In this document: in pieces, positions 17,341-38,488 of the stretch
Position numbering within the stretch: the first letter of the stretch is position 1
Layout of the letters: each line of letters begins with the position of its first letter
NCBI GenBank assembly: GCA_963713925.1
Contig: OY970212.1
Location: 1,024,001-1,088,000 of the forward strand
Origin: an uncultured bacterium
GTDB taxonomy: Bacteria > Babelota > Babeliae > Babelales > Vermiphilaceae
Direction of reading: 5' to 3'
DNA: 64,000 bases
Program-made: the position numbers and the translations under genes
Notes under the pieces: model-generated
Databases searched by the model: none
Seen by the model: the letters and a program-made list of their open reading frames with translations, nothing else
What the model was told of the DNA's origin: nothing

Positions 17341-17344
17341 TTCG

Positions 17345-19924: not shown

Positions 19925-20359
19925 TCACTCACTGATCTTCACATATCCCTCTTGAACGAGCTGGATAGTTCGCGCCATGGCATCAGTGTTCACCTTGATT
20001 CCGGGTAGCAGGTCTGCATTGCCCCATTTGTGAGCGGCGGCAGTCGCGCCGCATAACTCGACCCGCACACCATTCTTAATCAGAACAGCGACAAGTTCTT
20101 TGTAGGGATTGCCCGTCTTGATCATGCGTTCAATGTTGTACGAGTCGTCGTTTAAAGTCACATGGCCCGCATTGGTATGAAAAACCGCGACAATATCCGA
20201 CTTTACATTCCAATTATGGCTGTCCTTTACGATGAGATTAAGATGGAAAATCGACGCTGGAAGATCCCCTTCAAACGCAAGCGCGCTGATACTGAATACT
20301 GCTTTTACTTCCGATAACTTTACCGGAATATCAATGTGAAGTGCCTTTGCTAATACAGT
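19925..20359 (-). CDS. DsrE-like protein
   Basis: AVFH, NPY, GVRVELCGAT, LLPGIKV, LVQEGY. Confidence 0.7.
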   Translation of the reverse strand, partial: TVLAKALHIDIPVKLSEVKAVFSISALAFEGDLPASIFHLNLIVKDSHNWNVKSDIVAVFHTNAGHVTLNDDSYNIERMIKTGNPYKELVAVLIKNGVRVELCGATAAAHKWGNADLLPGIKVNTDAMARTIQLVQEGYVKISE

Positions 20360-20432
20360 CATGTTAACTCCTCTTTTCAAAGCTTATGTGAACCGTGGTC
20401 TTGGCGGATGAATGAGACGGCTGGCAGAGAGA

Positions 20433-21080
20433 TTATGCCATGCGCGTGACTACCTCGTCGGTCGATAGCACCTCGTGCGCCAGATATCGGTAGTTGATCA
20501 GCGCCGCCTGGTAGCCATCGCCCCATTCTGGATGGCTCGGCCCGGCGATCGCATCCTTTACAATAGCAACTTCGAAACCTTGCTCAAGGAACTCGCGCAG
20601 ATGGGACTCGACACACATGTTCGCCAACATCCCACCTAGAATGATCTTGCTGATCCCTCTCTTGCGTAGCTGTAGAACGAGGTCATTGGTCTGCGGGCCA
20701 AACACCTTGTGTGGACTAACAACAATTGTCTTGCCATCTTGAATGTAAGGCTTGAAACGGTCTAGCCAGTCTGCTCCTGAATTCGCAATCCCCGTCAGAT
20801 CCAGCGGCCCGACACGCGCGAAGGTACGCGTGCTCAACTCTACAGCTTCGAGCGGTCCATTGATCTTCCAGCCATGATCGGTTGGGTAGAAATAATGGGG
20901 TGAGATAAGCAGCTCATAGTTATTCGCTTTCGCAGACTTGAAAAGTCGCTCTAAGTTCCCGATAATACCGTTCTTGATGACGCTGGCACCAACCAAGCCC
21001 CAACTCGTGCCCTTCTCGGATAGAAAATCATTTTGTGGATCGATTACAACAACAGCAGTATCACGATTATTAAATTTCAT
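20433..21080 (-). CDS. Isochorismatase-family cysteine hydrolase
   Basis: VVIDPQNDF, HKVFG, GMLANMCVES. Confidence 0.9.
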   Translation of the reverse strand: MKFNNRDTAVVVIDPQNDFLSEKGTSWGLVGASVIKNGIIGNLERLFKSAKANNYELLISPHYFYPTDHGWKINGPLEAVELSTRTFARVGPLDLTGIANSGADWLDRFKPYIQDGKTIVVSPHKVFGPQTNDLVLQLRKRGISKIILGGMLANMCVESHLREFLEQGFEVAIVKDAIAGPSHPEWGDGYQAALINYRYLAHEVLSTDEVVTRMA

Positions 21081-21141
21081 CTTGAACTTTCCCGTTTTTA
21101 CTGAAAATATATGATGGTTTTTTCAATCTTATGGAATAACT

Positions 21142-22305
21142 TCATGGCACAACAGGTCTTTTATTCTTAGAGATTTTTGCCAAAACTGATTCATCGATAT
21201 TTAAATGCGCGCGCACGAGTTCATGTGGCGTAAATGCAAGCCAATGAGCAAGTGAAACATCGGCGAAGTAATCACTTTTAAACACTTCTAGAAATCGCAA
21301 TGTGGTATCTCCAATATTCTCAATGTAATGACCCGTTTGAATAGGAACAACTCCCACATCGCCAGCCTGATAATTAAAAGTCCGTGCCATTCCAACAGGA
21401 GTATATACTGTCATGCGGGCTTGCCCGGAAATGTAATATTGCCATTCATCAGCATTTGGATGCCAGTGCAGTTCGCGCATGCCGCCCGGCTCAATTTCCA
21501 CCAATGCCGCTGCAATTGTTTTTGAAGCGGGAAATACACTTGAGTCAACAATGCGAACAGTCCCACTTTTTGTGCGAATTGGTTTTTGAGCCATCATTTT
21601 GTGGCTAAATGTCTGCGGCACAGGCCCGTTGCCAATTACACGATCCTTAGAAAGTGGCCCCGGAACTTTTGTTTGTAACATGTAAAGTTCTTTTGTGGGA
21701 ATTCGTGCAAATGCACTTTCGGCTACCTGAAAATTTTTTGCAATCACTTCCGGTGGCATATGTGCCAAAAAGTCGCTCAAAGAAAATGTTTCACTTTCCG
21801 AGAAATTGCCATCATCAAACACAAGCAAAAATTCACAGCCATCATCACCAAGCCCTTGAATCGAGTGAGGAATTCCTGCCGGAAAATACCATAAATCACC
21901 TTCAAATACATCATCCTGAAATGTGCATCCATTTTGATCGACAGCAGTAATGCGCGCGCCCCCTTTAATCATATAAGACCATTCAGCAGCATGGTGCCAG
22001 TGTAGCTCGCGCACTCCTCCTGCCGTAAGCCGCATATTGACGCCAGCAAGTGATTTTGCAATTGGCAATTCACGAATGGTAGTCTCGCGCGACCACCCGC
22101 CTTCTTCTAAGCGCATATGGCTATCTGCAAAAGACCACTTTAAATTTGGTAGCAAACCCTTGTCGGTGGGCGGCGGCACCAGAAGATCAGGATTTTGTAC
22201 TTCTAATTGCAGGTTTCTTGGGCCAATTATGTTTCCTCCCAAATCGCCTCTCATCGGCTCAAACTTATGCGCTGAACTTTTTTGAGCGGTACTTTTTTTC
22301 TTCAT
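21142..22305 (-). CDS. Oxalate decarboxylase family bicupin
   Basis: Two RELHWH cupin motifs, PHSIQG, lid [16 protein letters not shown]. Confidence 0.93.
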
Positions 22306-22413
22306 AAAAAACTCCACATAATTTCTTACTTTCAGTAACTATCCGACAATTTAGAAAAATCATGCAACCGGAAGCAAGAAATATTGCGTTTCATTTGAAG
22401 TACTATTTAGTCT

Positions 22414-23529
22414 ATGTTGATAACTAAGGAACTGCAGAGGATTAAAAGGAACATGATGATTCGAAAATTCCTCAAAGTATTGCCATTGATATTATTTCTA
22501 ATAGTGATTCAGGGAGCGTCCCACATTAATAAGTCTCATACGCAACGTTTGAAGCATGCTGTAGTTTTTATCACGGGAGGCACGAGTGGCATAGGCCTGG
22601 CAACTGCTGTTGCATGTGCCGCTGAAGGTGCTGCGCATGTCATCGTATGCGGACGCAGAAAATCAAAATGGATTGAAGCACAAAAATACGTTGATTCTCG
22701 ATTATCTCCTGAGCAAAAAAATTGCATTGAATATTGGCCATGTGATGTTCGCGTTGAATCACAAGTGAAGAGTGTTATTGAGAAGATATTTGCTCAATTT
22801 GGCAGATTAGATATTTGCTTTAATAATGCTGGCGTTCAACCAGGCATAGTAACTGGTGCTGATAGTGGATTTATCACAGAAATGTTTTTTGAATCATCTA
22901 TAGCTCCAGATGGATCTATTATGTATCGTGTTCCGCCACCACAACCCGAATCGGACATTCAGTTTCAAAACACAAAATGCAAACCAACACAAACAACACC
23001 CGCATCTCCTTTTTGTGAATCTGAGATCGCTACAAGCTGCATTGGCGTGTTTTATTGCTTAAAGTGGGAGATTAATTATATTTTTGAAAAACAACCAAAA
23101 AATCTTCCCGTTTCAATTATTAGCACTTCAAGCAGAAATGGTGTATTGCCTGATGCGCATCGGCCATTATATGCCGCCAGTAAAGCATTCATATTAGCAT
23201 TAACAAGAAGCACTTCAAATCAAGTCGCGCAAAAATCGATAAAAAATAAACGCGCAATGGTGAGAATTAATGCGGTCAGCCCTGGGCCAATAGATACGCC
23301 ATTAGAATTTGGAGCATACGGTGCAACACCTTCCAATCTCCAACAATACAACACCTATGTAAAAGCAGCTACAGTTGGCGTTCCTATGAAAAGAACTGGT
23401 AACCCAGAAGACATTGCTCATGCAGTTTTGTTTTTAGCGGATGTTCATACTTCAAGTTATATAACTGGAGCAAATATATGTGTTGATGGTGGTCATACTG
23501 GTTCACCACTGCTCTGTCAGTGTGAATAA
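22414..23529 (+). CDS. Short-chain dehydrogenase/reductase with N-terminal hydrophobic leader and internal insertion
   Basis: TGGTSGIG, NNAG, YAASK, NAVSPG, VDGG. Confidence 0.9.
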   Translation: MLITKELQRIKRNMMIRKFLKVLPLILFLIVIQGASHINKSHTQRLKHAVVFITGGTSGIGLATAVACAAEGAAHVIVCGRRKSKWIEAQKYVDSRLSPEQKNCIEYWPCDVRVESQVKSVIEKIFAQFGRLDICFNNAGVQPGIVTGADSGFITEMFFESSIAPDGSIMYRVPPPQPESDIQFQNTKCKPTQTTPASPFCESEIATSCIGVFYCLKWEINYIFEKQPKNLPVSIISTSSRNGVLPDAHRPLYAASKAFILALTRSTSNQVAQKSIKNKRAMVRINAVSPGPIDTPLEFGAYGATPSNLQQYNTYVKAATVGVPMKRTGNPEDIAHAVLFLADVHTSSYITGANICVDGGHTGSPLLCQCE

Positions 23530-23638
23530 TAACAAGAACGTGTTTTGATTTTCAGGATGCGAGGTATATGATCAGGCACTCCAATTTATTGCCAATCCTT
23601 GCTATGAAGCTATTCTTGGAAGAAAACAAGATCTTCTT

Positions 23639-24478
23639 TCAGTCTTCGATTTCATACATATGAATCCACGTCAACTCAGGCGTAATTAAAACTTCGTTCG
23701 GATCACAAAAATGTGACCAAAAAACCTCTGTCACACACGGCTGATAAGATCCATCCGGTCGCAATTCTCTAGTTGTTGTCAAATCCCAATGCAACGGAGA
23801 AATCAAGCATACTTCCTCTAAGGTTATTTTTTTATCAGTGATCAATCGAAATACAATGTCTTGAGCTTTATCAACTTTCCAATAATCGGTAATATGGGTA
23901 CATACCACTTCAATATCCGGAAATATCCTCTTGCATAAAATATTCAGCCCATACAAAATCCGTTTAATTATGTCTTCAGATGAATCATCCACTATACACC
24001 GTATGCATATCCATGACCTCATAGTATCGTACAAAGCAGGATAATATTTCTCCGTGCGAATAATACTGAAGACATCAACGTCTGTAACTTCTGAGCTCAT
24101 GAATATTTCACAACGACCTTCCGGGATATCCCTCGACCAGCTGATACTTTCGACAAAATATTTTTCATAAGGATAAATAGTATATTTTGTAGATGGATGT
24201 GAATTCCACTCTTCTATATCAAACATCTCGGCAAATCGAGCTACATTATCAGGTTCCTTATCCACACACGTATAGATAAGCTCTGAAAGTACCCCGCGCT
24301 TATATTTTTTTCTAGTGAGCTCGCATGTTACATGAGGCGCATATAAAGCAAAACAACCCTTTAGTCGATCGGTAAGATCGTAAACTAATCGCTCAGTTCC
24401 TTCCCGCTTTCCATCAATTTCTATATGAACTTCACATGTATCAGAATACAAACTATTTTTCTTATCTGTTTTGCACAT
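23639..24478 (-). CDS. Putative immunity protein, tandem two-domain paralog
   Basis: Second half has DYWK, LHWD, TWIHMY like the upstream paralogs; first half looks like a degenerate copy; TAATG coupling to the upstream gene. Confidence 0.6.
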   Translation of the reverse strand: MCKTDKKNSLYSDTCEVHIEIDGKREGTERLVYDLTDRLKGCFALYAPHVTCELTRKKYKRGVLSELIYTCVDKEPDNVARFAEMFDIEEWNSHPSTKYTIYPYEKYFVESISWSRDIPEGRCEIFMSSEVTDVDVFSIIRTEKYYPALYDTMRSWICIRCIVDDSSEDIIKRILYGLNILCKRIFPDIEVVCTHITDYWKVDKAQDIVFRLITDKKITLEEVCLISPLHWDLTTTRELRPDGSYQPCVTEVFWSHFCDPNEVLITPELTWIHMYEIED

Positions 24479-24882
24479 TACTTCTCGACCTTATCTTCTG
24501 ACCACGTATAAATATGAACCCATCGCACTTCAGGTAAAAAAAATTCATCTTGTGGGCACTCAATTTTACTCCATAAACCTTCCTCATCTAAATACCGTTC
24601 AGTAGAACCCGCATTATGGCCAACGCTACTTAAATACTCCCAATGCAATGGGATATGATTTAAGAAATCAATAACTCGTAGCGGCTCATCACTCTTCATC
24701 TGAAATATCACATCTTTATCTTCAGGATATTTCCAATAATTTTCACCGGAATATAACAAGCAAGATGCCTTTGGTAATAACTTTTGAACTTCTCTTTTTA
24801 AGCGATCAAACAAATCCTGAACATGATGCTCAGTACCTTTTTCTATAAAACACCGAATCATAAAACTTTTGCATTGTTTCAT
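24478..24882 (-). CDS. Putative immunity protein (YWKYPEDK family)
   Basis: FMIRC, YWKYPEDK, FFLPEVRWVHIYTW. Confidence 0.7.
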   Translation of the reverse strand: MKQCKSFMIRCFIEKGTEHHVQDLFDRLKREVQKLLPKASCLLYSGENYWKYPEDKDVIFQMKSDEPLRVIDFLNHIPLHWEYLSSVGHNAGSTERYLDEEGLWSKIECPQDEFFLPEVRWVHIYTWSEDKVEK

Positions 24883-25298
24883 TTATGATTGCTTTCAACT
24901 TCTCTTGGCCATGAATAAGCGTGAAGCCAATTTATTTTAGGAAAGAGAAATACTTCTTCCGGATGTCCTATTTGGTTCCAAATAGCTTCTTCTTTCCGAT
25001 AAGGCTTCGGCATGTCAGCGTCAGCATCATGCGCACGACTCTCATGGTAATCCCAAGTCAAAGGTATCTTGGATGTTAAGTCTATAATTCTCAACGGTTG
25101 ATCACTGTAAATAACATAAATTTCTTCTCTATCTTCTGGACATTTCCAATAATGATCAGAAGACCAAATATCTATTTTAGCTTGAGGGAAAACATTCCGA
25201 ATCAAAGACGTTAATCCTGCAAATAACTGTTGCGCGTCTTCTTGGGTGCCGTTATTAATAAGACATTTGACCATAAAAGCCTTACAATAATTAATCAT
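24879..25298 (-). CDS. Putative immunity protein (YWKCPEDR variant)
   Basis: Same family; ATGA-coupled to the orphan toxin tip. Confidence 0.7.
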   Translation of the reverse strand: MINYCKAFMVKCLINNGTQEDAQQLFAGLTSLIRNVFPQAKIDIWSSDHYWKCPEDREEIYVIYSDQPLRIIDLTSKIPLTWDYHESRAHDADADMPKPYRKEEAIWNQIGHPEEVFLFPKINWLHAYSWPREVESNHK

Positions 25299-25399
25299 TT
25301 ATGTGTAACCCTTCCTTTAAAACTCACATTCAAATGAATATTATCTCGAGTCATCCAACCAACCTGCTGTTTGCCTTGAGGAGATAATTGAACATCCCA
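25295..25399 (-). pseudogene. Orphan toxin C-terminal remnant (34 aa)
   Basis: WDVQLSPQGKQQVGWMTRDNIHLNVSFKGRVTHK*, near-identical to both toxin tips; in-frame TAA two codons upstream, no start codon. Confidence 0.9.
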
Positions 25400-25494
25400 A
25401 CATTAAACCCAATCTCGCAAGCTCCGATTGAGACTGTCAAATCCCATTAGCTTAGAAAGACATCAAAAAAGAACACGGGAAATTTTCTAAAAGA

Positions 25495-25914
25495 TCATTC
25501 CACTAACGGCAGATTTTCAACGTTATCCCAAAACCATGTATAGACATGAACCCAATTAACGCTTGGTAAAAAAAATGATTCTTCAGAATCTTCATACTGA
25601 TGCCAAGTCGCTCTTTCATCGAAAAAGACTTCTTTTGTTTCAGAATCGTGAGCAACCCCGCTTTTATACTCCCAACTTAGTGTTATATGACTAATGAAGT
25701 TAATAACCTTTAAAGGTTCTGTGCCGCTTACCTTGAAAATCACTTCCTTATCTTCCGGGTATTTCCAATAATGCCTATTTGCAAACAATGAAAATTGCAC
25801 ATCATTAAAAACCTTATTGACAAGTCGTTCTATGGAATTAGATAATTTTTGAACATCCTCATCATTCCCCTGCCATATATGACATTTGATCATAAAATTT
25901 TTACAGTATTTCAT
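25495..25914 (-). CDS. Putative cognate immunity protein of toxin 1
   Basis: ATGA overlap with the toxin stop; YWKYPEDK, WVHVYTW. Confidence 0.75.
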   Translation of the reverse strand: MKYCKNFMIKCHIWQGNDEDVQKLSNSIERLVNKVFNDVQFSLFANRHYWKYPEDKEVIFKVSGTEPLKVINFISHITLSWEYKSGVAHDSETKEVFFDERATWHQYEDSEESFFLPSVNWVHVYTWFWDNVENLPLVE

Positions 25915-27845
25915 TTGTGGGTTACCCTACCTTTAAGACTTACATTCAAATGTGTGTTATCTCGCGTCATCCATCCGACTTGCTGTACTCCTTGGGGAGA
26001 GAGTTGCACATCCCATTCTACACGCTCTTGCTTGAAACCCCGCGCTCCAATGGTTCTTGATTTTCCTTCTACCCAAATATTTTTAAACCTATCAACAAAC
26101 CCCTCATCACCATTTTTAGAAATACCCCTTGGCAGCCCATTTGCAACATCAAACTTTTTAGGTGGGACATATCGTAGCTTACCAGTATGGGGCAATTCAG
26201 CTGCCTTTACCAAACTCTTGATACTCGTCTTTTTATTATTACGTTTTCTAAGTTTTTTGAGAGCGGACTTACTTAATTGTTTTACATCAGCTGAAGTACT
26301 CGATGTAAATTTCGCGGCGCTCTGACCAGCACAAAATGATTCATCAACGGCCTTGAACATTACTCCTTCGGGAGTTGTCATATACATCTGCGGAGTCGCA
26401 AGTGGATTTTTTTCTATATAGTTGATCGCTTTGGTTTTAACGGTTGAATAGAATTTGCCCAAACCACCTAAGATCTTGCCCTGCGTTTTGTATTGCACGA
26501 CAAGCTTGGTTCCCTGTTTGAGAGCATCACGTAAGGAAATTTCATTATTTGCAAAAGCCGTTCCAACTGCGGTAATCACATTCGTAATCGGAGCAATATA
26601 ATCATCCCATTTTTCTCGACCCGCTTGCGCATCAATCAAGCTCGTAATACCGATATCGGCCAAATTGGTGGCAATTTTAAGAGCCTGATATGCCATGACA
26701 TAGTTGCCAATCGTCAAGCTTGCAACCGTTTGTAACGGATTATTGTAAATATCAACAACCGCACCGATCGCACCTTCTACAGCTCCCTCAATGACAGCCG
26801 AACAACAATCCAAAATCCCCCAACACACATCAGCAACTGACATTGCTTTTTCAGTCTTACCTGCCTGATTGAGCATTCGGGCACCGTCAGCAAGATCAAT
26901 GAGCGCATCCTTATGCTCATATGCTGGATGATCGCTGGAAAGATGAATCGCGCGATCAACGATATCTATGCATTCTTGGTGAATTGTTTGTTGTAATGCA
27001 GAACCATAGCAGTGTTCATATTCGTATGGTGATGCTTGATGCTGCCGAAGTTTTTGTTTGACGTCATCAGAGAGACAATATTCTTTATGTTCAAAGTGAA
27101 GCAATGCCTCATCGGCAAAGATCGCTTGCATGCGTCGCTCAAAACGATCTGATTGCGTGTCACAATCGTCATATAAATCTAGCGCATCGTAATAATCATC
27201 GATATTTTCATTAAACTCATGCGAATTATCTTTGTAACCGTCTCTGATAATTGCTTCGTTGCGCAAGCGAGCTTGACGTTTTCTTTCCGCAACTTCTCGC
27301 CGATTTTTTATATCCTTGCACTCACCGGCAATACAATTAAGATGGCATAATCCCTCATCGCAATGCATATGCCAATTATAGCCGGTATAATTATATTTTT
27401 TGCACAATCTCTCATATGCCACTAAAAGATTATCTTCATAATTTCCGACATGCGACTTTAAAAATGCCCTATAAGCCGGACTTGTATACAACTGCCACTG
27501 ATCAAACAACCAATCGGGATCTGAAATTTTTCCGGTAAATCGAGCCGCTTCGGCAAATTCTTCACCCGACCACTCTTTGCACTTTTTTTGATTGTTAATC
27601 AATTGATTGTAACGCGCTATTTCTTGATTATGGAGAGCCTTTTCCAACTGAGCAAGTTGCTCTTGCAAACTCAGATTTGGCAATCTTGTGCGCAATCTTT
27701 TTTGAGATGTGTTTTTTATTGTGATTCCGTTGTTTTCCCGCTTATTTTTACCATAGACAACCTCAAGATCGATAGGATTTTCATTTTTGGAATATGTGGT
27801 AATCGAGAGAAAACAGACGCATAAAAGAAATTTGAGAATCAGCAT
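25911..27845 (-). CDS. Secreted polymorphic toxin 1 with Ntox17-like C-terminal domain
   Basis: Signal peptide; tip LPHTGKLRYVPPK...GFVDRFKNIWVEG...EWDVQLS...HLNVSLKGRVTH matches my recollection of Ntox17. Confidence 0.8.
   Translation of the reverse strand: MLILKFLLCVCFLSITTYSKNENPIDLEVVYGKNKRENNGITIKNTSQKRLRTRLPNLSLQEQLAQLEKALHNQEIARYNQLINNQKKCKEWSGEEFAEAARFTGKISDPDWLFDQWQLYTSPAYRAFLKSHVGNYEDNLLVAYERLCKKYNYTGYNWHMHCDEGLCHLNCIAGECKDIKNRREVAERKRQARLRNEAIIRDGYKDNSHEFNENIDDYYDALDLYDDCDTQSDRFERRMQAIFADEALLHFEHKEYCLSDDVKQKLRQHQASPYEYEHCYGSALQQTIHQECIDIVDRAIHLSSDHPAYEHKDALIDLADGARMLNQAGKTEKAMSVADVCWGILDCCSAVIEGAVEGAIGAVVDIYNNPLQTVASLTIGNYVMAYQALKIATNLADIGITSLIDAQAGREKWDDYIAPITNVITAVGTAFANNEISLRDALKQGTKLVVQYKTQGKILGGLGKFYSTVKTKAINYIEKNPLATPQMYMTTPEGVMFKAVDESFCAGQSAAKFTSSTSADVKQLSKSALKKLRKRNNKKTSIKSLVKAAELPHTGKLRYVPPKKFDVANGLPRGISKNGDEGFVDRFKNIWVEGKSRTIGARGFKQERVEWDVQLSPQGVQQVGWMTRDNTHLNVSLKGRVTHK
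26328..27211. repeat. ~884-bp direct repeat copy A (toxin core)
   Basis: Colinear with 29862-30745 at the same 3534-bp offset at both ends; scattered substitutions. Confidence 0.9.
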
Positions 27846-27948
27846 ATGAGGCATCCTTTGTTAATTCCAGCATACTACAGAAAATATTTCAAAAAAAGAC
27901 ACCGCCTTAATGATTAAGACGGTGCATGCAATATATTGTTCCGATTAT

Positions 27949-28335
27949 TTACTGAATCTTATATTTATTGAGAAATTTTTTTACTTTAAAAGCCTTGTTG
28001 TAGAAACGAAGCACTTCATGAGTTGCAGCATTAAAATCCTTCGTTTGTTGAAAATGGCAATGTCTACCTTTATAGATATACCACTGAGACATATCTTTGT
28101 AAGTACTCGCCATGACTTTTTGTGCAGTCTTACGTTTGCATGAATTGATGCAACTATATAACTTACGTAGCCCCTCTTCTCTCATCGCTTTTGATTCAGG
28201 ATAATTTCTTGCATCTAATCCGACAGCAGCAAAAGTAGATCCACAAACTTCCGCACATTGAAATAAATCTTCAGCCTTTTCTGCGGCAAAAGCAATTCCA
28301 ACTGTAGAGATTAAAAGTAACGCAAGTAATTTCAT
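27949..28335 (-). CDS. Small secreted hypothetical protein with two CxxxC pairs
   Basis: AAGGA Shine-Dalgarno, signal peptide ending AFA, CAEVC and CINSC. Confidence 0.7.
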   Translation of the reverse strand: MKLLALLLISTVGIAFAAEKAEDLFQCAEVCGSTFAAVGLDARNYPESKAMREEGLRKLYSCINSCKRKTAQKVMASTYKDMSQWYIYKGRHCHFQQTKDFNAATHEVLRFYNKAFKVKKFLNKYKIQ

Positions 28336-28429
28336 ATGAATTCCTTAGAAAAAAATGGCCCAATATTACTGAAGTTTTGCCGCACACGGTTATAGATATA
28401 AATACCAATAAATACCTTACTGGCGTAGT

Positions 28430-28489
28430 CTGGCCGTGCCAGCCATAGCCTTCGCTAAACCTCATCGTCAGCCGTCTCAAGGCGACGGC
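28430..28489. repeat. tRNA-3'-flank REP-like element
   Basis: CTGGCCGTGCCAGCCATAGCCTT...GGCGACGGC resembles 50533-50564, which abuts the tRNA-Ser CCA end. Confidence 0.6.
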
Positions 28490-28588
28490 TGGTGGACCGA
28501 ATCGGATGATTTTAGCAACTTCAATATAGATGAAAAGCTGTTATTTGCAATAAAACAATTCATGCAAGAGACTTCATTAATTATTTAA
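28490..28588 (+). other. Distal att site carrying the displaced C-terminal coding segment of the recombinase
   Basis: Reads WWTESDDFSNFNIDEKLLFAIKQFMQETSLII*, in frame with the recombinase terminal KWW across the 7-bp core. Confidence 0.65.
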
Positions 28589-28595
28589 ATAACTA

Positions 28596-29015
28596 TCACT
28601 CAACGTTTTCTTCTGGCCAGGTATAAATATGTACCCAAGTAATCTCAGGCATCAAAAAACTTTCTTCAGGATGCACATTTTTACTCCAAATGGCGTTTTC
28701 ATTATGAAAAGTTTTCTTTTGGGTTACTTCGTAACAGTTGTTTCCTCTAAAATTCCATGCGATAGGAATTACTTTAATAAAGCGTGAAACACCATAAGTC
28801 TCTCGACCCAAAATCTCATAAATTACTTCTTTGTCTTCAGGAAACTTCCAATAATATGCGTTAATGGCAAGCTCACATGAAGCTTGCGGAAATTGCTCTT
28901 TCAAGAACTGCTTCAATTTCATTGTAAGCTCAGCAACATGTTCTTCTGTACCATTGTGAATCATGCACCGCACCATATAACTTTTACTAAAAAACACTTG
29001 ACCGGATTCACTCAT
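28596..29015 (-). CDS. Putative immunity protein (YWKFPEDK)
   Basis: Same family; overlaps the stop of the upstream paralog. Confidence 0.7.
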   Translation of the reverse strand: MSESGQVFFSKSYMVRCMIHNGTEEHVAELTMKLKQFLKEQFPQASCELAINAYYWKFPEDKEVIYEILGRETYGVSRFIKVIPIAWNFRGNNCYEVTQKKTFHNENAIWSKNVHPEESFLMPEITWVHIYTWPEENVE

Positions 29016-29415
29016 CCTCAACCTCATCTACAGGCCAAGTATAAACACGGATCCAATAAATTTCGGGCAATAAAAATCGCTCTTGAGAATCACTCTCTCT
29101 TCTCCAAAGAGCCTCTTCACTAAAATAAAGTTTATCTGTATCCGCATCGCGAGCAATCTCACTTTTATACTCCCAGCTCAACATGGTATTTCCTATAAAG
29201 TAAGCCACATTGAGCGCCTTTTGACTTTTTATTTCAAAAATAAGTTGCTTGTCTTCCGGATACTTCCAATAATATTCGTCCGAACGCAAAGATACCTTTG
29301 CATCTTCAAATATATCTTCGATAAATGTAGTTAATGTTTCTAATAGTTTTCTGATATGATCTTCTGAAGCTTTTTCCAAAAAACATTTAATCATAAAAAT
29401 ATTACTGCGTTTCAT
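29008..29415 (-). CDS. Putative cognate immunity protein of toxin 2
   Basis: ATGA overlap with the toxin stop; YWKYPEDK, WIRVYTW. Confidence 0.75.
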   Translation of the reverse strand: MKRSNIFMIKCFLEKASEDHIRKLLETLTTFIEDIFEDAKVSLRSDEYYWKYPEDKQLIFEIKSQKALNVAYFIGNTMLSWEYKSEIARDADTDKLYFSEEALWRRESDSQERFLLPEIYWIRVYTWPVDEVEDE

Positions 29416-31358
29416 TTATGAGTCACCCTTCCCTTGAAACTCACATTTAAATGAGTGTTATCTCGAGTCATCCATCCACACTGCTGAACTCCTTGAGGTG
29501 ATAATTGAACATCCCATTCTTTCGGTTCGAATTCATGTCCACGACCACCTAGCGTCCGAGTTTCTCCTTTAACCCAAACATTTTTAAATCGATCTATATA
29601 ACCGGTATCTCCATTATCCATTTTTTTGACGGGAAGCCTTTCTCCAGGCTTCATACCTTTTGGAGGTATATACCGAATTTTACCTTCCGTGGGCAACTCA
29701 GCCTTTTTTATTTGACCTCGTATACTCCGCTTTCCCTCTTTTCTTAACTCTTTTTCAGCCGCCCTTGCTGCCATTCGTAACTGCTTTTTGTTAACCCATG
29801 CAGATTGACCCGATTGTATCGCTCCGCCTGCCAACTGCCCGGATTGTGCTGCTCGCTGCGTAGCACAAAATGATTCATCCACAGCCTTGAACATAACTCC
29901 TTCAGGAGTTGTCATATACATCTGCGGAGTCGCAAATGGATTTTTTTCTATATAGTTAACTGCTTTGGTTTTGACAGTCGAATAGAATTTACCCAACCCA
30001 CCTAAGATCTTGCCCTGCGTTTTGTATTGCACGACAAGCTTAGTTCCTTGCTTAATCGCATCGCGTAGAGAAATTTCATTGTTTGCAAAAGCAGTTCCAA
30101 CTGCGGTAATCACATTCGTAATCGGAGCAACATAATCATCCCATTTTTCTCGACCCGCTTGCGCATCAAACAAGCTCGTAATACCGATATCGGCCAGATT
30201 GGTTGCAATTTTAAGAGCCTGATATGCCATGACATAGTTGCCAATCGTCAAGCTTGCAACCGTTTGCAACGGATTATTGTAAATATCAACAACCGCACCG
30301 ATCGCACCTTCTACAGCTCCCTCAATGACAGCCGAACAACAATCCAAAATCCCCCAACACGCATCGGCAACCGACATTGCTTTTTCGGTTTTGCCCGCTT
30401 TGTTGAGCTCGCGCGCGCCATCTGCAAGATCAATAAGCGCATCCTTATACTCATATGCCGGATGATCATTGGAAAGATGAATCGCCCGATCAACGATATC
30501 TATGCATTCTTGGTGAATTGTTTGTTGTAATGCAGAGCCATAGCAATGTTCATATTCGTATGGTGATTCTTGGTGCTGCCGAAGTTTTTGTTTGACGTCA
30601 TCCGAGAGACAATATTCTTTATGTTCAAAGTGAAGCAATGCCTCATCGGCAAAGATTGCCTGCATGCGTCGCTCAAAACGATCTGATTGCGAGTCACAAT
30701 CGTCATATAAATCTAGCCCATCGTAATAATCATCGATATTTTCATCAAGCTCCCGAGCGTATTCTTGATAGCCCGATTTGATATCGTCTTCATACTTTTT
30801 GCGTGCCTTTTTGTACGCTTCTTCTCGTTCTCGTTTTGATCTGATACTGGAACATTCGCTGGCAATATAATTAAGATGACATAACCCTGTATTGTGCCAG
30901 TTGCCCGGATGGTTATGCTTCTCTTCTAGCTTATCATAGGCCCTGACTAATCGACCCTCATAATCATCGATCGTTTTTAAGAATTCCCGATATTGTGGAA
31001 TTTTGTATAGATCCCATTGATCGAATAGCCATACTTTATTAATGTATTTGCGTGCTACAATTGCTGCTCGACGAAATTCCTTTACCGTCCAGTCTTTGCA
31101 TTTACGCTGATCATATATAAGACTAAACTCTTTCTTGTAGAACATCTCATACAATTGTTTTCTCGTCACTTGCACCTTCGGCGCTAATGGCCAATGATGC
31201 GGCTTCGGCTTAATATGGTCCTTTTGGTGCTCTTGTGGAAACTCTTGCTCTCGATGGTAGACTACGGGCTCAAGATCAATTGGATCTTCTTGTCCACAAA
31301 GTTTTGGTGCGAATGTAGTAATGATGAAAACCAAGAAAAAATGATTCGATGTGATCAT
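29412..31358 (-). CDS. Secreted polymorphic toxin 2 with Ntox17-like C-terminal domain
   Basis: AAAGGA Shine-Dalgarno 8 nt before ATG 31358, signal peptide, PIDLE motif; tip LPTEGKIRYIPPK...GYIDRFKNVWVKG...EWDVQLS...HLNVSFKGRVTH. Confidence 0.8.
   Translation of the reverse strand: MITSNHFFLVFIITTFAPKLCGQEDPIDLEPVVYHREQEFPQEHQKDHIKPKPHHWPLAPKVQVTRKQLYEMFYKKEFSLIYDQRKCKDWTVKEFRRAAIVARKYINKVWLFDQWDLYKIPQYREFLKTIDDYEGRLVRAYDKLEEKHNHPGNWHNTGLCHLNYIASECSSIRSKREREEAYKKARKKYEDDIKSGYQEYARELDENIDDYYDGLDLYDDCDSQSDRFERRMQAIFADEALLHFEHKEYCLSDDVKQKLRQHQESPYEYEHCYGSALQQTIHQECIDIVDRAIHLSNDHPAYEYKDALIDLADGARELNKAGKTEKAMSVADACWGILDCCSAVIEGAVEGAIGAVVDIYNNPLQTVASLTIGNYVMAYQALKIATNLADIGITSLFDAQAGREKWDDYVAPITNVITAVGTAFANNEISLRDAIKQGTKLVVQYKTQGKILGGLGKFYSTVKTKAVNYIEKNPFATPQMYMTTPEGVMFKAVDESFCATQRAAQSGQLAGGAIQSGQSAWVNKKQLRMAARAAEKELRKEGKRSIRGQIKKAELPTEGKIRYIPPKGMKPGERLPVKKMDNGDTGYIDRFKNVWVKGETRTLGGRGHEFEPKEWDVQLSPQGVQQCGWMTRDNTHLNVSFKGRVTHK
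29862..30745. repeat. ~884-bp direct repeat copy B (toxin core)
   Basis: Matches 26328-27211. Confidence 0.9.
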
Positions 31359-31524
31359 GTGCATATTCCTTTGCTGAGCAGATATATGTCCCGCAATACT
31401 ACAACATAGCAAATGAAATGTTAACACCCTATCTAAAGGCTTACTCGTACTACTCAGAAAGAGAATAGAAAAGAAATGAAGCCATAAGTATAATTATCCT
31501 GTTTTGCTGAAAGGATAATATACT

Positions 31525-32706
31525 ATGGCCTCTGAAAAAAAACTCTTAGAGCATATTAAAAAAAATAACGATAAAGCTCAAGCTTCCACATTATTAAAAC
31601 ATTGCCTTCTTCATACAATTGATTGTATGAAAGAATACAATGACAATAGTGAATTGAAAGCAATTAACGATTTATTAGACCGCGATGAAAAGAATGATAT
31701 CGGGCCCTTGAATGAGCACGAACAACGAATTCTCCAAGAATATACAAACATATATGAACAAGTGAAAATTTATAAAAAGGTTTGTGGCTTCAAACAATCG
31801 GAAATCACACGATTTGAAGCACTTGGCAATGATGACCCCCAAAAACGGATTGATGGCACATGGGACTTGGTAACGGAAAAAAAGATAGCACTGGAAGGCG
31901 AGTTACATTTCTTGGCAAAAAGATCATCTAAACATTGGCCGTTTGTATCAATGTTTGGAAGTATTATCTGTCCAACAACTAGTCGATATAACCCACGAAT
32001 AGATTTTTCTCTCAAACGTCAAAACTATGATGAATGGCTAAAAAATAAGGAAGCTTTTGAATTAGCACAAAAAACAAAGACCTGGTATCACCGGAATAAA
32101 CTTACATGGATATATCGTGTCCTCACCAATGGAGAAGCTGAGTATAAAAGGCTGATGGATTTGGGTCTTTTTTTGGAAGCGACAGATGTCAGCGCTCTGT
32201 ATAACGGATTACGTAGTGGCTTAGAATTAGGACCTAAAATTGGTAGGAATGCTATAAAACTTGAAGAGTTGAAATATAGTTTGCAAAAAATAGTTGATTA
32301 TACAGAAAAAAACTTAGAAAGTTACTCTAAGCCAAATATGACCAATGATCCAGAGAGTAAATCAATTCCCACGTATGATGGCGGAACTGGAATATTGAAT
32401 GTTTATGATACGGAAATTGACTTCGATGTTCAAGCCGATCGGCATAAAATCTTAGAAATAGGCTTTCCAAACGGTATACCTGCCCAAAACGGTATTGCGC
32501 ACGATATTATTTATGATGAAGCGTTAAAAACAGATGCTGACCTTTCCTGGCATCAACTCAATAAAGAAACACGGGCTGAAATAAAAAAAAAGATACGAGA
32601 AATCTGTCGTGGCATAAATGATCGAGTTGAACAAAAGGCTAAAGAGAAAATTTCGATTGCTACCTCTAAGGGAGGGGTTGTTCACTTCGGTTATGATAGT
32701 CAATAG
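31525..32706 (+). CDS. Hypothetical protein (element core)
   Basis: 393-aa ORF with AAAGGA Shine-Dalgarno, no signal peptide, no recognisable motif. Confidence 0.75.
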   Translation: MASEKKLLEHIKKNNDKAQASTLLKHCLLHTIDCMKEYNDNSELKAINDLLDRDEKNDIGPLNEHEQRILQEYTNIYEQVKIYKKVCGFKQSEITRFEALGNDDPQKRIDGTWDLVTEKKIALEGELHFLAKRSSKHWPFVSMFGSIICPTTSRYNPRIDFSLKRQNYDEWLKNKEAFELAQKTKTWYHRNKLTWIYRVLTNGEAEYKRLMDLGLFLEATDVSALYNGLRSGLELGPKIGRNAIKLEELKYSLQKIVDYTEKNLESYSKPNMTNDPESKSIPTYDGGTGILNVYDTEIDFDVQADRHKILEIGFPNGIPAQNGIAHDIIYDEALKTDADLSWHQLNKETRAEIKKKIREICRGINDRVEQKAKEKISIATSKGGVVHFGYDSQ

Positions 32707-32845
32707 CTAATAATTCATTTTTGTCTCTCACGTAAAAAGATTGCCCATACAATTCCGGCAATCTTTTTTTATTTGACCTTACTTCAACTTGCCGGCCCGA
32801 CACGGGCCGAGGGGAACCGACACATCACAGCATAAGCTTTATTGC

Positions 32846-33061
32846 ATGAAGATAAAAAAAATTGTCGGACCCTCATTACCCCAATTACATACAACTCAAT
32901 CTGATGAGTCAGTCTTATCTTCAGATGATTGTGCAACGCTTGTCGCATTCTTTGGAGTGCTCCTGGATTGGCACCAAAATGAAAATGCGATTAATGAGAA
33001 CGCCTCAACATTAATTGAAAAAAAACTAAAAAAAGTTTCAAAAAAGGATTCTAATGAATGA
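32846..33061 (+). CDS. Small hypothetical protein
   Basis: Overlaps the next ORF by 8 nt; motif DCATLVAFFGVLL resembles 37023-37178. Confidence 0.55.
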   Translation: MKIKKIVGPSLPQLHTTQSDESVLSSDDCATLVAFFGVLLDWHQNENAINENASTLIEKKLKKVSKKDSNE

Positions 33062-33314
33062 CCTAGTAACAATTGAATTATTAGAGATGTATCGATTCAA
33101 GGCAAGTAATCAAAAAGCACCTCATGATCCCATTATTATTGATAATAAAGAACATGATTATAGTGTTGAAATTGACGGTCAATTGCGACACGGCCGATAC
33201 ACAGCAATATTTAGGCCGTTAGAAAAAGATCCGAATGGACCTACTTTTATCCTTTTTGGAGGACTCAATGATGAAAAGGGGGAATACAGCTATTCGTCAC
33301 TAATGAAAAAATAA
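33054..33314 (+). CDS. Small hypothetical protein
   Basis: 86 aa, AAAGGA Shine-Dalgarno, upstream of the helicase. Confidence 0.6.
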   Translation: MNDLVTIELLEMYRFKASNQKAPHDPIIIDNKEHDYSVEIDGQLRHGRYTAIFRPLEKDPNGPTFILFGGLNDEKGEYSYSSLMKK

Positions 33315-33378
33315 TTTTAAAACATTAAAACCATCGCTTGAATCCCGATGGTCTTAAATAAAAAACAGGAAATTTACT

Positions 33379-34950
33379 ATGAGTAATGATAACACAAAAA
33401 AAGTTTCTAAACAACGAAAAATCCCTCGCAGTAAGCAAATCGAGATCATGCAAACTGAATGGTATAAAGAAGCTCAACAATTAGCATCAGAAAAATCCCA
33501 TCTCGGTTATAAAGATTTTCCATGGGATGCTTTTTTGGAAATAACACCCAATGATAGCTTGGATAGCTCGAAACAATCACAAATCATCGCGTTACAAGAG
33601 AGGTATAAAGAGTTAATCGAGCGTCAAAAGCTTTTGTGGGCAGAAGACAACGTTGTCACTGAACTAAACAAAATTCATGCAGTTGTACACATTGATCAAA
33701 CTTTTATCATCACCGAAAAAAAGAATTCACTTGGCGGTCATGATTTTTCATTTGAAGGTAGGCAATCCTTCAAGGCGTTTTATGAAGATGAAACAATCAT
33801 ATGCATCGATGGTATTGAACGATGCAAAGCGAGCATTTGGTTGAAAAGTTCGAAAAGACGCAAATACAAAGGTATTGTTTTTGATCCCAATATAATAGGC
33901 CCTGTAGATGGCTGCTACAATTTGTGGAAAGGTTTTACGAGAAAATCAATACAAGGAACCACTCAAAAATATTGGGCTCACGTTAAAGAAAATATTTGCA
34001 ATGGAGATGAAGAATCCTATCAATATATACGAAAATGGCTCGCTTATGTTTTTCAACGACCTGATCAAGTTCACACCGGCATAGTGCTTCGCGGTTCACA
34101 AGGGGTCGGAAAAAATAGTTTCGTTGAGCCCTTGGGAGTTCTTTTGGGATCACACTATGCACCGCTCAGCAGCATTTCAGAGCTCGTTTCAAATTTCAAT
34201 TATCATCTCAAAAATGCAGTTCTAATTCACGCCAATGAAGCATTATGGGGTGGAAATAAGAAAGAGTTAGGAACAATTAAAGCAATGATCACAGAACGAT
34301 CCTGTTTAATTGAAGGGAAAGGGAAAGATAGAATTGTAGTCAGAAATTTTAAGCATGTCATTCTAAGCAGCAATGAAGACTGGCCGGTTTCATTGGATGC
34401 AGATGATCGTCGTTTTTTTGTTCTAACTGTTTCGGAAAAGCACAAAGAAGATCATGAGTACTTTAAAGCGATACAAGAAGAGCTAGATAATGGAGGCTAT
34501 GAAGCTTTATTATTTGATTTGCTCAACGAGGACATATCAAATTTTAATCCTCGTAAACTGCCAAGTTCATCTGATTCTTTCAGCATAAAAATGCGAAGCG
34601 CCGATTCCCCGCAGCGATACTTATATGAAGTATTGTGTGAAGGCGGGTTTTCCATTGGAGATGATGGTGGGAACACAACTCCTGTTTGGCAGGATACAAT
34701 CCCAAAAGATGCTGTTCGCAAAGATTATGTCGCATGGTGCGAAAAAAATGGCGAGCCTGTCTTATCCCAAAATCTATTCGGACGAGTAATAAACAAGACC
34801 ATCGCTTCTGTGCTAGATACGCGTCCGAGCTGTGGCAGCCGTCAACGATGCTATAGATTCCCTAGCTTACGCAAATCACAAGAAGATTTTTGCAAAGCTT
34901 TTAAGGAAAAGCCTGAACGAATTTTTGATAATTACGAAACTATTGACTAG
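33379..34950 (+). CDS. SF3 (D5/NrS-1-like, DUF5906) replicative helicase
   Basis: YNLWKGF, Walker A GSQGVGKN, Walker B IHANE, ILSSN, DDRRFF. Confidence 0.88.
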   Translation: MSNDNTKKVSKQRKIPRSKQIEIMQTEWYKEAQQLASEKSHLGYKDFPWDAFLEITPNDSLDSSKQSQIIALQERYKELIERQKLLWAEDNVVTELNKIHAVVHIDQTFIITEKKNSLGGHDFSFEGRQSFKAFYEDETIICIDGIERCKASIWLKSSKRRKYKGIVFDPNIIGPVDGCYNLWKGFTRKSIQGTTQKYWAHVKENICNGDEESYQYIRKWLAYVFQRPDQVHTGIVLRGSQGVGKNSFVEPLGVLLGSHYAPLSSISELVSNFNYHLKNAVLIHANEALWGGNKKELGTIKAMITERSCLIEGKGKDRIVVRNFKHVILSSNEDWPVSLDADDRRFFVLTVSEKHKEDHEYFKAIQEELDNGGYEALLFDLLNEDISNFNPRKLPSSSDSFSIKMRSADSPQRYLYEVLCEGGFSIGDDGGNTTPVWQDTIPKDAVRKDYVAWCEKNGEPVLSQNLFGRVINKTIASVLDTRPSCGSRQRCYRFPSLRKSQEDFCKAFKEKPERIFDNYETID

Positions 34951-34954
34951 GAGC

Positions 34955-35178
34955 GTCCATTATGATGTCCATGATCTGCAATAGAAAAAATATTTGATTT
35001 ATGACGTTAGTCCAAGACGTCCATATCGTCCGGGCTGTTAAGAAACCGAAACATTCTTCTCATGATAAACGGTGAAGAAAAATTTTGGTGTTCAAACCAC
35101 TCGGACCATGTGGACTGTGTGGACAATGATTATGGAATCGATATTGTCACAATCTTTCTTCCTGGACATATTGTGGAC
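34955..35178. promoter_or_regulatory. Putative iteron replication origin of the element
   Basis: GTCC at 34955, 34967, 35010, 35019, 35028 mirrored by GGAC at 35103, 35112, 35121, 35164, 35175. Confidence 0.75.
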
Positions 35179-35192
35179 TAAAAAGGAGCGTT

Positions 35193-36221
35193 ATGACTCT
35201 TATTGAAATCGCACAACAAGCTGGCATAAAACCAAAGTGGGTGGCAGGCACCGGCGGTGGAGAATATCACTCAGCATGCCCATCCTGCGGTGGGAAGGAT
35301 CGTTTCTTTATTCAGCCATACAAACAAATGGCCAAATGCGTAGGAAGTTATTGTTGTAGAAAATGCGGTATCGCTGGTGATGCAATTCAGTTTGCTCGAC
35401 AGTTTTTAAGCTGTTCTTTTCAAGAAGCTGCTCAGATGGTAAATGCAATAATAAATGAAAACATATCGCTTCCTTCTTTTGCACCTATCAATTCTGCAAA
35501 GCCAGCTATTTTGGTACCTCCTCCAGAAAAATGGTGCGCACATGCTACGGATTTCGTTAATCGTGCGCATGAACGCCTTTTGAGCAATGAGGATGGGTTA
35601 CAACTCCTCACAAACAGAGGACTTCCACTTGATGCCGTCATTCGCTACAAGCTTGGGTGGTCAGATAAAAATGAGTTCTTCTCAAGAACTCATTGGGGTC
35701 TTGCCGATCGATTCGATCAGAACAATAAGAATCGACAGTTGTGGGTACCACAAGGACTTGTTATACCTTCGATCGAGCCAAGCGGCAAAGTAACTCGTTT
35801 GAAAATTAGAAGATGCGATTGGAACGCCGGAGATAAATTACCTAAATATGTGGCAATTTCTGGTAGCATGAATGGTTTGATCATTATTGGCTCAACAAAT
35901 CGTTCTACGATGATTGTGGTCGAGTCAGAGCTTGATGCATATGCAATACATCATGCAGCATCTGATTTTGCTTTCGGAGTCGCTGTTGGAAGTAATATTA
36001 AAAACCCGGACAATATAACTGATCATAATGCGCGAAATAGCAAACAGCTGCTTATCTGTCATGATAACGATGAACCGGGAAAAATAATGTTTTCAAAGTG
36101 GCAACGCTTATATCCGCATGCTATCAACTATCCAACCCCAATTGGTAAAGATATTGGAGAAGCAATTCAAAATGGGTTCAATTTAAGAGAGTGGCTTTTA
36201 TTAGGACTCCGGTCAATTTAA
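35193..36221 (+). CDS. Zn-ribbon plus Toprim primase-like protein
   Basis: CPSCGGKDRF...CRKCG zinc ribbon, VVESELDA, ICHDND, KDIGE. Confidence 0.85.
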   Translation: MTLIEIAQQAGIKPKWVAGTGGGEYHSACPSCGGKDRFFIQPYKQMAKCVGSYCCRKCGIAGDAIQFARQFLSCSFQEAAQMVNAIINENISLPSFAPINSAKPAILVPPPEKWCAHATDFVNRAHERLLSNEDGLQLLTNRGLPLDAVIRYKLGWSDKNEFFSRTHWGLADRFDQNNKNRQLWVPQGLVIPSIEPSGKVTRLKIRRCDWNAGDKLPKYVAISGSMNGLIIIGSTNRSTMIVVESELDAYAIHHAASDFAFGVAVGSNIKNPDNITDHNARNSKQLLICHDNDEPGKIMFSKWQRLYPHAINYPTPIGKDIGEAIQNGFNLREWLLLGLRSI

Positions 36222-36397
36222 TCAAAACCCTGAAATCGACCACTTCTGATTATAGCTGTGCCTATTTTTTTGCATCATTTTTCATTTAAATTTTTAAAAC
36301 ATTAGAAATGAGCGCTTTTTAAACCAAAACTTGACTACGTCAATGAATTAGTTACAATTAGAATATATTTAAACGTTAAAAAAACAAGGTAACCAAA

Positions 36398-36880
36398 ATG
36401 AAATTTTTAAAAATTTCTTCTGCATTTTTACTTGTGCTAGGTTTATTTGGCCGCAGTACGACACTCCTTGGAATGGATGATATTGTTATTCATAAAGCAC
36501 CAACTAAAACAAATGATCCCCAAGGGAAAAAATTTGGCAAATTCTTTTTTTCAGGCCACGCCCAAACAAGAATGAAAGAGAGAGAAGTTTCTTTTGAGGA
36601 AGCTTCTGATGTAGTGAGACATGGCAACCGTTATAATACATTAGAAGGCGCAAAACTCTGTTTTTATGACAAAAAAAATATTGCTGTAGTTCTAAATGAT
36701 AAAACCAATACCATAATTACTGTTCTTTCAAACTTTAATCAAAAAAAATTGATTAAATGGTTGAGCAAGCGCGATGAAAAAAAACCATTTGCTAAGCCTG
36801 CTGCTGTAAAACCAAATGAATTCGTTGAAAAAAAACCATGCTTTACTGAAGTAAACAGTGATTTCGATATCTTTTTGTAA
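36398..36880 (+). CDS. Secreted protein with DUF4258-like domain
   Basis: Signal peptide; FSGHAQTRMKEREVS...IAVV...IITV. Confidence 0.65.
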   Translation: MKFLKISSAFLLVLGLFGRSTTLLGMDDIVIHKAPTKTNDPQGKKFGKFFFSGHAQTRMKEREVSFEEASDVVRHGNRYNTLEGAKLCFYDKKNIAVVLNDKTNTIITVLSNFNQKKLIKWLSKRDEKKPFAKPAAVKPNEFVEKKPCFTEVNSDFDIFL

Positions 36881-37022
36881 TATAAATTTTGACAGTAATT
36901 TCTGGTTAATATAAATATATTGGGCAAGCATTTATTATGAATGCTTGCCCTTTTTTATGCTCTTTTGCTCTGATAGAATCAAAAAAAGCGCAATTCAAAT
37001 CGGTTTTAATCTTCGAAACTGG

Positions 37023-37178: not shown

Positions 37179-37201
37179 GATCGTTCATTTTCCAAAAAAG
37201 T

Positions 37202-38430: not shown

Positions 38431-38488
38431 AAAACTATGGGAGTCGCACTCATAAAACAATATTGAGTACGACTCCTTTCGTTTTAAC

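Follow-up and report, generated by a model that had tools for sequence, protein, structure and literature searches.

Integration of a 14.1-kb element (window positions 28490-42628) into the end of a tRNA-Ala gene appears to replace the C-terminus of the very recombinase which inserts it. The window is the whole 64,000-nucleotide stretch of DNA that was analyzed, which is part of the 1.32-Mb single-contig genome (G000) of a Dependentiae (Babeliales) bacterium with 38 tRNA genes. Our joint reading, to which we would give a probability of roughly 0.8, is that the element encodes the large serine recombinase (LSR) which inserted it at the CCA end of the tRNA-Ala gene, that attP lies in the LSR gene and that the enzyme exists as isoforms of 488 and 517 amino acids; the tail which distinguishes them is predicted to sit at the coiled-coil base and may tune recombination. 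Serine integrases are prized for genome engineering because they are one-directional until a separate directionality factor reverses them, and the question addressed here is how direction is controlled in natural elements which lack a recognizable factor. In this element recombination would add or remove a conserved module of 27-32 residues which is predicted to lie at the place where directionality factors (RDFs) bind.

By its domains the protein encoded at 41167-42633 (plus strand) can be identified as an LSR. The N-terminal catalytic domain with the nucleophilic serine was present (resolvase domain PF00239, E = 2.9e-22, residues 5-153) and the protein contained a YARVSS motif, with R9, S11 and Q15 invariant among 40 homologues. 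The Recombinase (PF07508, E = 3.4e-18) and Zn_ribbon_recom (PF13408, E = 1.6e-9) domains were also matched, and a model of the long-form homologue P0008 placed long helices (338-442), the inserted coiled coil, between the zinc ribbon and strands 456-470. It was the one resolvase-domain protein among the 12 island ORFs scanned. The integrated isoform as translated is 488 amino acids long and ends ...SKSGKWWS, followed by the stop codon. Because ARAGORN placed an intact tRNA-Ala(GGC) on the opposite strand at 42622-42697 (minus), the final 12 nt of the LSR gene (TGG TGG AGC TGA, stop included) were identified as the antisense of the tRNA 3' end including CCA. This tRNA gene would be both the target and the B' arm; the attR core TGGTGGA (42622-42628, plus), which is identical in sequence to the attL core, is the antisense of the tRNA terminus ...TCCACCA-3', and the P arm of the attachment site (42600-42621, plus), as delimited by comparison among loci, also forms the last LSR codons before a conserved Trp. 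A P arm of the form ...AAA(A/T)CTGGAAAN running directly into TGG was common to 13 orthologue-type loci (L004-L015 and the window), with a different arm at the paralogue loci. The tRNA-Ala/DsbD neighbourhood was kept in 7 relatives which have no integrase there.

The core at the other end of the element (28490-28496, plus) opens a frame which reads WWTESDDFSNFNIDEKLLFAIKQFMQETSLII and closes with a TAA stop at 28586-28588. From its translation, its conservation and its substitutions, this stretch (28490-28588, plus) would be a tail exon which completes the integrase in the excised form (WW plus 30 amino acids and stop). An earlier note on this DNA had proposed that the recombinase ends in GKWWS and stop with its last codons supplied by the tRNA antisense strand (42622-42633), that joining at the 7-bp core yields a 30-codon extension (517 versus 488 amino acids) and that the two sites agree at 13 of the first 17 nt. 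All three statements were borne out, the first by the ORF and ARAGORN, the second by the joined frame (487 + 30 = 517 amino acids) and the third by direct comparison of 28490 with 42622.

A rival reading is that 28490 is a chance match and that the true left end lies elsewhere, for example to the left of a second toxin cassette near 24.4 kb. The core by itself would allow this, since the window has 10 copies of TGGTGGA where 4.98 would be expected, and a count of 10 was reached in 5 of 100 shuffles, which is not significant; homologous toxin/immunity cassettes also lie on both sides of 28490. Against it stands the sequence immediately upstream. The B arm of attL (28430-28489, plus), as defined by a motif search and by the empty sites of relatives, appears to be an orphaned tRNA trailer, the original 3' flank of tRNA-Ala. 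Positions 28430-28450 hold the 21-nt trailer motif CTGGCCGTGCCAGCCATAGCC. The motif has 20 copies genome-wide, and in 13 cases a tRNA 3' end lies within 40 nt; the nearest tRNA end to the present copy, that of tRNA-Ala(GGC), is 14.2 kb away. In its sequence and its 40-nt spacing to the junction it resembles the trailer which follows a tRNA-Met gene (genome position 583904). A flank of this type, ...gcgaag(g/a)(c/t) directly before TGG, also borders empty tRNA-Ala(GGC) sites of relatives, 7 of which keep DsbD on the other side. Further evidence against a chance match came from the relatives, where the P' arm and the tail are conserved at the distal sites. Ungapped comparison of 15 distal sites showed the P' arm (28497-28522, plus) to be conserved as DNA, with the consensus ATCGGAnnATTTyAGCAACTT. 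A search with five tail queries and the trailer motif gave no second tail or trailer in window positions 1167-41166. The arrangement of toxin, trailer and site also recurs as tandem units in the relative G013, and the flanking toxin genes are therefore no argument against the site at 28490. Three independent lines of sequence evidence, namely the orphan trailer, the conserved P' arm and the conserved tail peptide, identify 28490 as the true attL, and we regard a chance match as highly improbable.

Trailers of this kind are widespread in the genome. About 20 of the 38 tRNA genes directly precede a conserved trailer of ~45-60 nt with two hairpins, CTGGCYGYGCCAG and then GGCGTAGCCC-TTTAT-GGGCGAAGCC, and the window holds examples at 28430-28489 and 50533-50564. 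The layout is CTGGCYGYGCCAGGCGTAGCC, ~15 more nt and then GCGAAGCC with the tRNA end, and similar trailers were seen at tRNA-Ala in relatives. Such a trailer could function as a terminator, as a processing signal or as a B arm used by these integrases. Rfam gave no matches at 28250-28650 up to E = 1, orphan trailer copy included.

The crossover lies somewhere inside the attL core and, from sequence, can be placed only within TGGTGGA. When 10 attP and 8 attB reconstructions were scanned for dyad symmetry, no clear peak emerged for attB, and the three attP peaks were nearly equal (0.40 at the TG of TGG, 0.39 at +4/+5 and 0.39 at +9/+10). An inverted repeat spotted by eye, TTGTCAAAATC / GATTTTAGCAA, was dropped when it proved out of register in relatives. 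In the lone soil-metagenome run found, X1 (0.20 of sampled words), contigs spanned attL (28332-28537) in the integrated form. Runs X1-X3 gave no excision joints, a result which is uninformative on excision with X1 the sole run holding the element.

To place these sites in a wider context, LSR homologues were compared at 21 loci, drawn from the present genome and 20 relatives, with identities of 50-72% among orthologues and ~30% for paralogues. Twenty of the 21 run directly into the antisense of a tRNA 3' end, the tRNAs being Ala, Arg (four anticodons), Asn, Glu (two anticodons) and Asp, and the remaining locus (L003) has a tail-like end instead of a tRNA fusion. In all 20 tRNA-abutting loci the junction codon was Trp, TGG being the antisense of CCA. 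The ending ...K[TS]G[NK]W was common to the 13 orthologue-type loci with one exception (L011, ...GNTW). Past the junction Trp the protein is the tRNA read backwards (WS, CAR or CARQDSNLRPTD, each followed by a stop), for 2 to >20 residues.

Distal sites were then sought on the island side of 11 orthologues, using the window tail and four further tails as queries. They were found in G028, G026, G013 (five), G024 (two), G002 (two), G017, G036 and G055, and a second island of the present genome, at tRNA-Glu, also has one. These sites are not independent, coming from related genomes and in five cases from a single array (G013). They combine a trailer-like flank, a tRNA-specific core, the P' arm and the tail; the exception is G017, where the site lies directly behind a frameshifted LSR gene and has no trailer-like flank. 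The shared core equals the first 9-10 nt of the cognate tRNA 3' end (TGGTGTGCCC for Arg, TGGCGTCCC(C) for Glu and TGGCTCCC for Asn), or 7 nt for Ala. Such co-variation of the core with the target tRNA is how attL sites should behave. In the stretches searched, no intact distal site was found in G006, G019 or G050. The first of these is the closest relative (LSR 72% identical, also at tRNA-Ala), and its loci L033/L034 (oriented ~35060-35160) have lost the core and P' arm of attL; what remains there is the trailer plus the distal half of the tail frame. The element in G006 is probably immobilized, as judged from this sequence, and with core and P' arm gone it indicates that such elements can persist once immobilized.

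Several of the islands have a composite structure. In G013 (L041/L042, oriented 20090-31244) five tandem units of ~2.5-3.0 kb were observed, each with a site made up of trailer, core and P' arm, a different tail, an immunity-like ORF and an Ntox17-like toxin, and a conserved stretch of ~400 nt which includes the trailer lies upstream of each site. The array has the appearance of repeated toxin cassettes with which the attL site was copied, and unequal crossing-over between the toxin genes would explain it. The present genome (G000:C1) holds two further elements of the family, at ~1308221-1318670 and 604059-605618. The tRNA-Glu element has an attL of its own (trailer followed by TGGCGTCCCC, encoding WRPLVDTFRNY...), which lies 8.9 kb upstream from where its integrase gene starts, and the paralogue at 604059-605618 has an intact attP-type junction (P, core, P') with a 24-residue tail, 2.7 kb from tRNA-Asp. 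In G017 (L037/L038, oriented 15712-17240) a frameshifted paralogous integrase is still joined to a tail, and this internal junction of the attP type, which lies 22.8 kb upstream from the integrase next to the tRNA, suggests tandem accretion. G019 (C1:1121125-1130187) has a pair of integrase genes on opposite strands, separated by 6 kb.

The tail frame was examined as coding sequence, and we consider it very probable that it is under selection as protein. The alternative is that the overlap of gene and site reflects mere genome compaction, in which the P' arm is needed as DNA, the frame is open by accident or under weak selection and the extra residues are idle. The first 33 nt are indeed conserved as DNA and would be a binding site regardless, and the 488-amino-acid form already has the full canonical LSR fold (see below). 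In the portion of their paper available, McMurdie et al. (PMC3146451) also thought a coding role of the tmRNA-antisense part of dsiB, a recombinase gene of Dehalococcoides genomic islands, unlikely, with variable translation at low efficiency as a trivial explanation instead; the same text also raised the prospect of full DsiB function only when the protein is encoded by the circle. In the present family the length of the frame argues against idle residues, since 14 of 15 distal sites are open for 27-32 codons from TGG (the exception, the second G002 site, has a stop after 13), and an open run of 24-33 codons after a random TGG in these islands has a probability of 0.095. The sites share the pattern W-x-x-L-S-D-Y-F-x-N/T-F, ~7 residues and then L-F-A-I-K-Q-x-L-F-A. 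The window tail fits this pattern at S, D, F-S-N-F, I-D and L-F-A-I-K-Q; it departs from the consensus at several modelled contact positions (T-E for A-L, D for Y) and ends in -SLII, versus -FA or -AA elsewhere.

The substitutions within the tail also argue against compaction alone. Across the FAIKQ block, in six sites chosen for containing the motif and hence an ascertained subset, differences at codon positions 1:2:3 numbered 10:5:39; counted by codon, 30 differences were synonymous and 10 non-synonymous. The attP of these enzymes has been described, in the text available, as ~50 bp. This block lies 54-68 nt beyond the core start, outside the half-site of ~25 bp which that length implies, so that codons 19-23 vary mainly at third positions far past the half-site. 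The same peptide pattern was seen in a paralogous clade which is ~30% identical in the body of the protein (the G017 internal copy and the G000 paralogues). With these observations taken together, compaction with an idle tail seems quite unlikely to us, and selection on the tail as protein is the reading that we carry forward.

The joined gene predicted from the two sites has counterparts among sequenced proteins. A set of 102 database homologues of the C-terminal third was obtained, those with names coming from Candidatus Dependentiae, Babeliales and Chromulinivorax. Six of these were of the long form (512-517 amino acids), with the tail coming after the conserved ...NW (as in ...GNWCALSVYFGNFSFQDVNLFGIKQLLFA). 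Pattern classification assigned the 102 sequences to the tail form (6), to tRNA antisense (70) or to other endings (4) and left 22 unassigned, many of which are visibly tRNA antisense or truncated. One of the long-form proteins, P0055 (513 amino acids), is encoded on two metagenome contigs from two samples (L053 and L054, 9,811 nt each). Each contig has a 127-nt terminal repeat, and the two are circular permutations of one another with 100% identity. The resulting circle is 9,684 bp in length (32.8% G+C), its 513-amino-acid long-form LSR is 64.6% identical to the window LSR, and it also encodes homologues of the primase and ORF218, in island order, together with several ORFs of unknown function; no other core-gene match was found on it. 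As read from these contigs, a free form of a sister element with an intact long gene exists, since the 9,684-bp circle encodes the joined long-form LSR, and the circle is probably self-replicating. The proposal in the earlier note that attP lies inside the integrase gene, with isoforms which differ between the integrated and excised states, was thus upheld by the junctions, the tail conservation, the coding-type substitutions, the proteins of 512-517 amino acids and the circle, and the conservation of a WxxxxDxF tail, which it had put forward as a check on homologous islands, was found both in the distal sites of relatives and in the tRNA-Glu island.

Structural models were made on the long-form homologue P0008, which is 58% identical to the window LSR over residues 330-488 and whose tail matches the window tail at ~12 of 27 positions (counted by eye). 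An AF2 model of P0008 (40-sequence alignment, mean pLDDT 79.8) had the canonical LSR layout, with the tail modelled as helices 487-495 and 503-511 at pLDDT ~79-83. The best structural matches were the SPbeta, Bxb1, phiC31 and LI integrases (Foldseek E 8e-20 to 6e-11; VIA Z 13.6-18.1). The solved LSR chains align to the model only as far as residue 471-481 and none aligns with the tail; the 488-amino-acid form therefore corresponds to a complete LSR, and the tail to an add-on without a solved counterpart. When the body of P0008 (1-482) and its tail (483-512) were modelled as two chains the score was 0.61, while the best of 3 controls scored 0.02; among 157 solved complexes this mark was reached 116 times, and among 215 mismatched pairs twice. 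The docking runs agreed in at least 92% of contacts, with a partner pLDDT of at least 70. Contacts of the modelled tail were to residues 340-352, 422-439, 447-454 and 471-481. In the P0008 model these residues belong to the coiled-coil base, on both its outgoing and its returning helix, and to helices of the neighbouring zinc ribbon. Both modelled chains come from one polypeptide, so that the result bears on packing of the tail against the body and not on regulation. At most, the models would make the tail a folded part of the enzyme which lies on a regulatory hinge; in known serine integrases, the directionality factors are described as binding near the base of the coiled coil (Shin et al., in the part of that work available).

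The sequence of events which we propose is as follows. The element would be inserted by its own LSR at the CCA end of tRNA-Ala(GGC), and with attP placed within the last LSR codons the integrated copy would encode the 488-amino-acid enzyme with its tRNA-antisense end (second Trp, Ser, stop), and the excised circle the 517-amino-acid enzyme with the conserved 30-residue tail. The tail, predicted as two short helices docked on the coiled-coil base and the zinc-ribbon domain, may set the trajectory or the availability of the coiled coil. Recombination would in this way rewrite the enzyme into a form with a different integration/excision behaviour, comparable to the integrase of phage Mx8. On the strength of the models the tail may tune when the LSR integrates or excises, and a switch of directionality or stability which replaces a separate excisionase, as the earlier note had suggested, is plausible. 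That the two isoforms differ in their recombination behaviour we judge to be possible, at somewhat less than even odds. It is more doubtful that the tail is a self-removing, cis-encoded directionality module, in which the free form with docked tail only integrates and the tail-less form excises without an RDF. If that were true, a two-state toggle would be written into the recombination site itself and would be common to a large family of tRNA-targeting serine integrases.

A different role for the tail would be that of a C-terminal degradation signal, with a short-lived integrase in the free form and a stable, tail-less one in the integrated form. Many tails end in small or hydrophobic residues and Ala (...LFA, ...FVMAA, ...LLTTAA, ...MSAA, ...VASA, ...TACA), the tmRNA tag of this genome is AEHAPAAA, and in mycobacteriophage BPs integration is described as removing an ssrA-like tag (PMC4557955, as far as the text available goes). 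The window tail, however, ends ...ETSLII and others end ...ILLI, ...IGI or ...TSY, the conserved part is the internal LSDYFxNF...LFAIKQ block rather than the extreme end, and the tail was modelled as folded and docked, unlike a free degron. A degron seems rather unlikely on this evidence, and the two roles are not exclusive. Tuning of recombination by a docked tail is the reading that we prefer.

Apart from the LSR, the element carries a conserved core and several cargo genes. Next to attL are two small immunity-like ORFs (28596-29027 and 29008-29415, minus) and an Ntox17 polymorphic toxin (29412-31427, minus; PF15524, E = 5.3e-24), and the repeat families D1-D4 and D8 tie these toxin/immunity genes to the second cassette left of attL. 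The conserved core (31525-37858), as assigned by Pfam and PHROGs, includes ORF393 and two small ORFs, a DUF5906/VapE-type helicase (33379-34950), a Toprim primase (35193-36221), a DUF4258 protein and ORF218 (37202-37858, minus). Two ankyrin-repeat proteins (38928-41047, plus; Pfam Ank families) are further cargo. The core genes were found in the same order in the elements of G002, G024 and G026; in G036 the helicase, primase and ORF218 are in reverse order and on opposite strands relative to the integrase, and in G055 only the primase and ORF218 were matched. Polymorphic toxins are carried by the window element and G013, and ankyrin-repeat proteins by the window element, G019 and G055. The small island ORFs gave no Pfam or PHROGs match to an RDF or excisionase, which does not amount to absence because RDFs are too diverse. 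The finding delimits a family of small integrative elements, self-replicating in all likelihood and equipped with primase and helicase, in the Dependentiae, a poorly studied bacterial group.

Other features were noted to the left of the core. The window contains two Ntox17 cassettes (24478-31427), one on each side of attL, each with a toxin and 2-3 small immunity-like ORFs; they share segments which are up to 89% identical, and the excisable unit does not include the left one. At 16045-17788 an IMS-family polymerase and a Peptidase_S24 protein form a UmuC/UmuD-like pair, and several small paralogous ORF families lie further left (2935-5700 and 11424-12443).

The placement of attP inside an integrase gene is an idea already in print, having been described for phage Mx8 and raised for DsiB of Dehalococcoides in the portions of those papers available. 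In the literature searched, outside which lay subscription journals and bioRxiv supplements, the DsiB/ssrA case was the only one found of a tRNA-targeting serine integrase with attP inside its gene, and a literature search on serine recombinases of Dependentiae gave no hits, so that no account of such elements in these bacteria was found.

The integrases of SPbeta (SprA), phiC31, Bxb1 and LI/A118 have attP outside the integrase gene and target protein-coding genes rather than tRNAs. They share their domain order with the window LSR, and the area near their coiled-coil base at which RDFs are described to bind, in the text available, is where the tail was seated in the P0008 model. They differ in that their RDFs are separate proteins, and the tail has no counterpart in any solved chain aligned.

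The Int protein of Mx8 is a tyrosine recombinase. Its attP is described as lying inside int, so that on integration the gene is recombined and acquires a different 3' end (IntP becoming IntX), and the altered enzyme is described as still active with a changed specificity (PMC6070905, in the part available). An attP core inside the recombinase ORF and a new 3' end on integration hold for the window LSR too, but the window enzyme, as an LSR, has another fold and another chemistry, with directionality which depends on a coiled coil, so that the design is the same and the protein family is not. A large C-terminal segment is replaced in Mx8, whereas a short add-on tail is removed here.

In mycobacteriophage BPs, attP is located in the repressor gene and integration cuts off 33 residues together with an ssrA-like tag, according to the available text of that study (PMC4557955). 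As in the window, attP lies inside a regulatory gene whose product is shortened on integration; the protein affected is a repressor there and an integrase here, and the case for a degron is weak for the window tail.

A parallel in position is found in the Dehalococcoides ssrA-specific genomic islands, where dsiB reads to a stop codon inside the tmRNA gene or the following island (McMurdie et al. 2011, PMC3146451). These islands are described as accumulating in tandem, each with a repeat of the target 3' end, and in the text available the authors considered the overlapping dsiB ends to be divergent and probably not functional, with DsiB perhaps fully functional only on the circularized element (PMC3146451). 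In both systems the 3' end of a serine recombinase gene, so far as that text describes it for dsiB, crosses the att site beside the tDNA. The target is ssrA there and tRNA-Ala here, and DsiB is accompanied by a small serine recombinase, DsiA, of which no equivalent was seen among the 12 ORFs scanned in the window island. In contrast to the divergent dsiB ends, the free-form tail of the window family is conserved, shows coding-type substitutions and was seen on a circular element.
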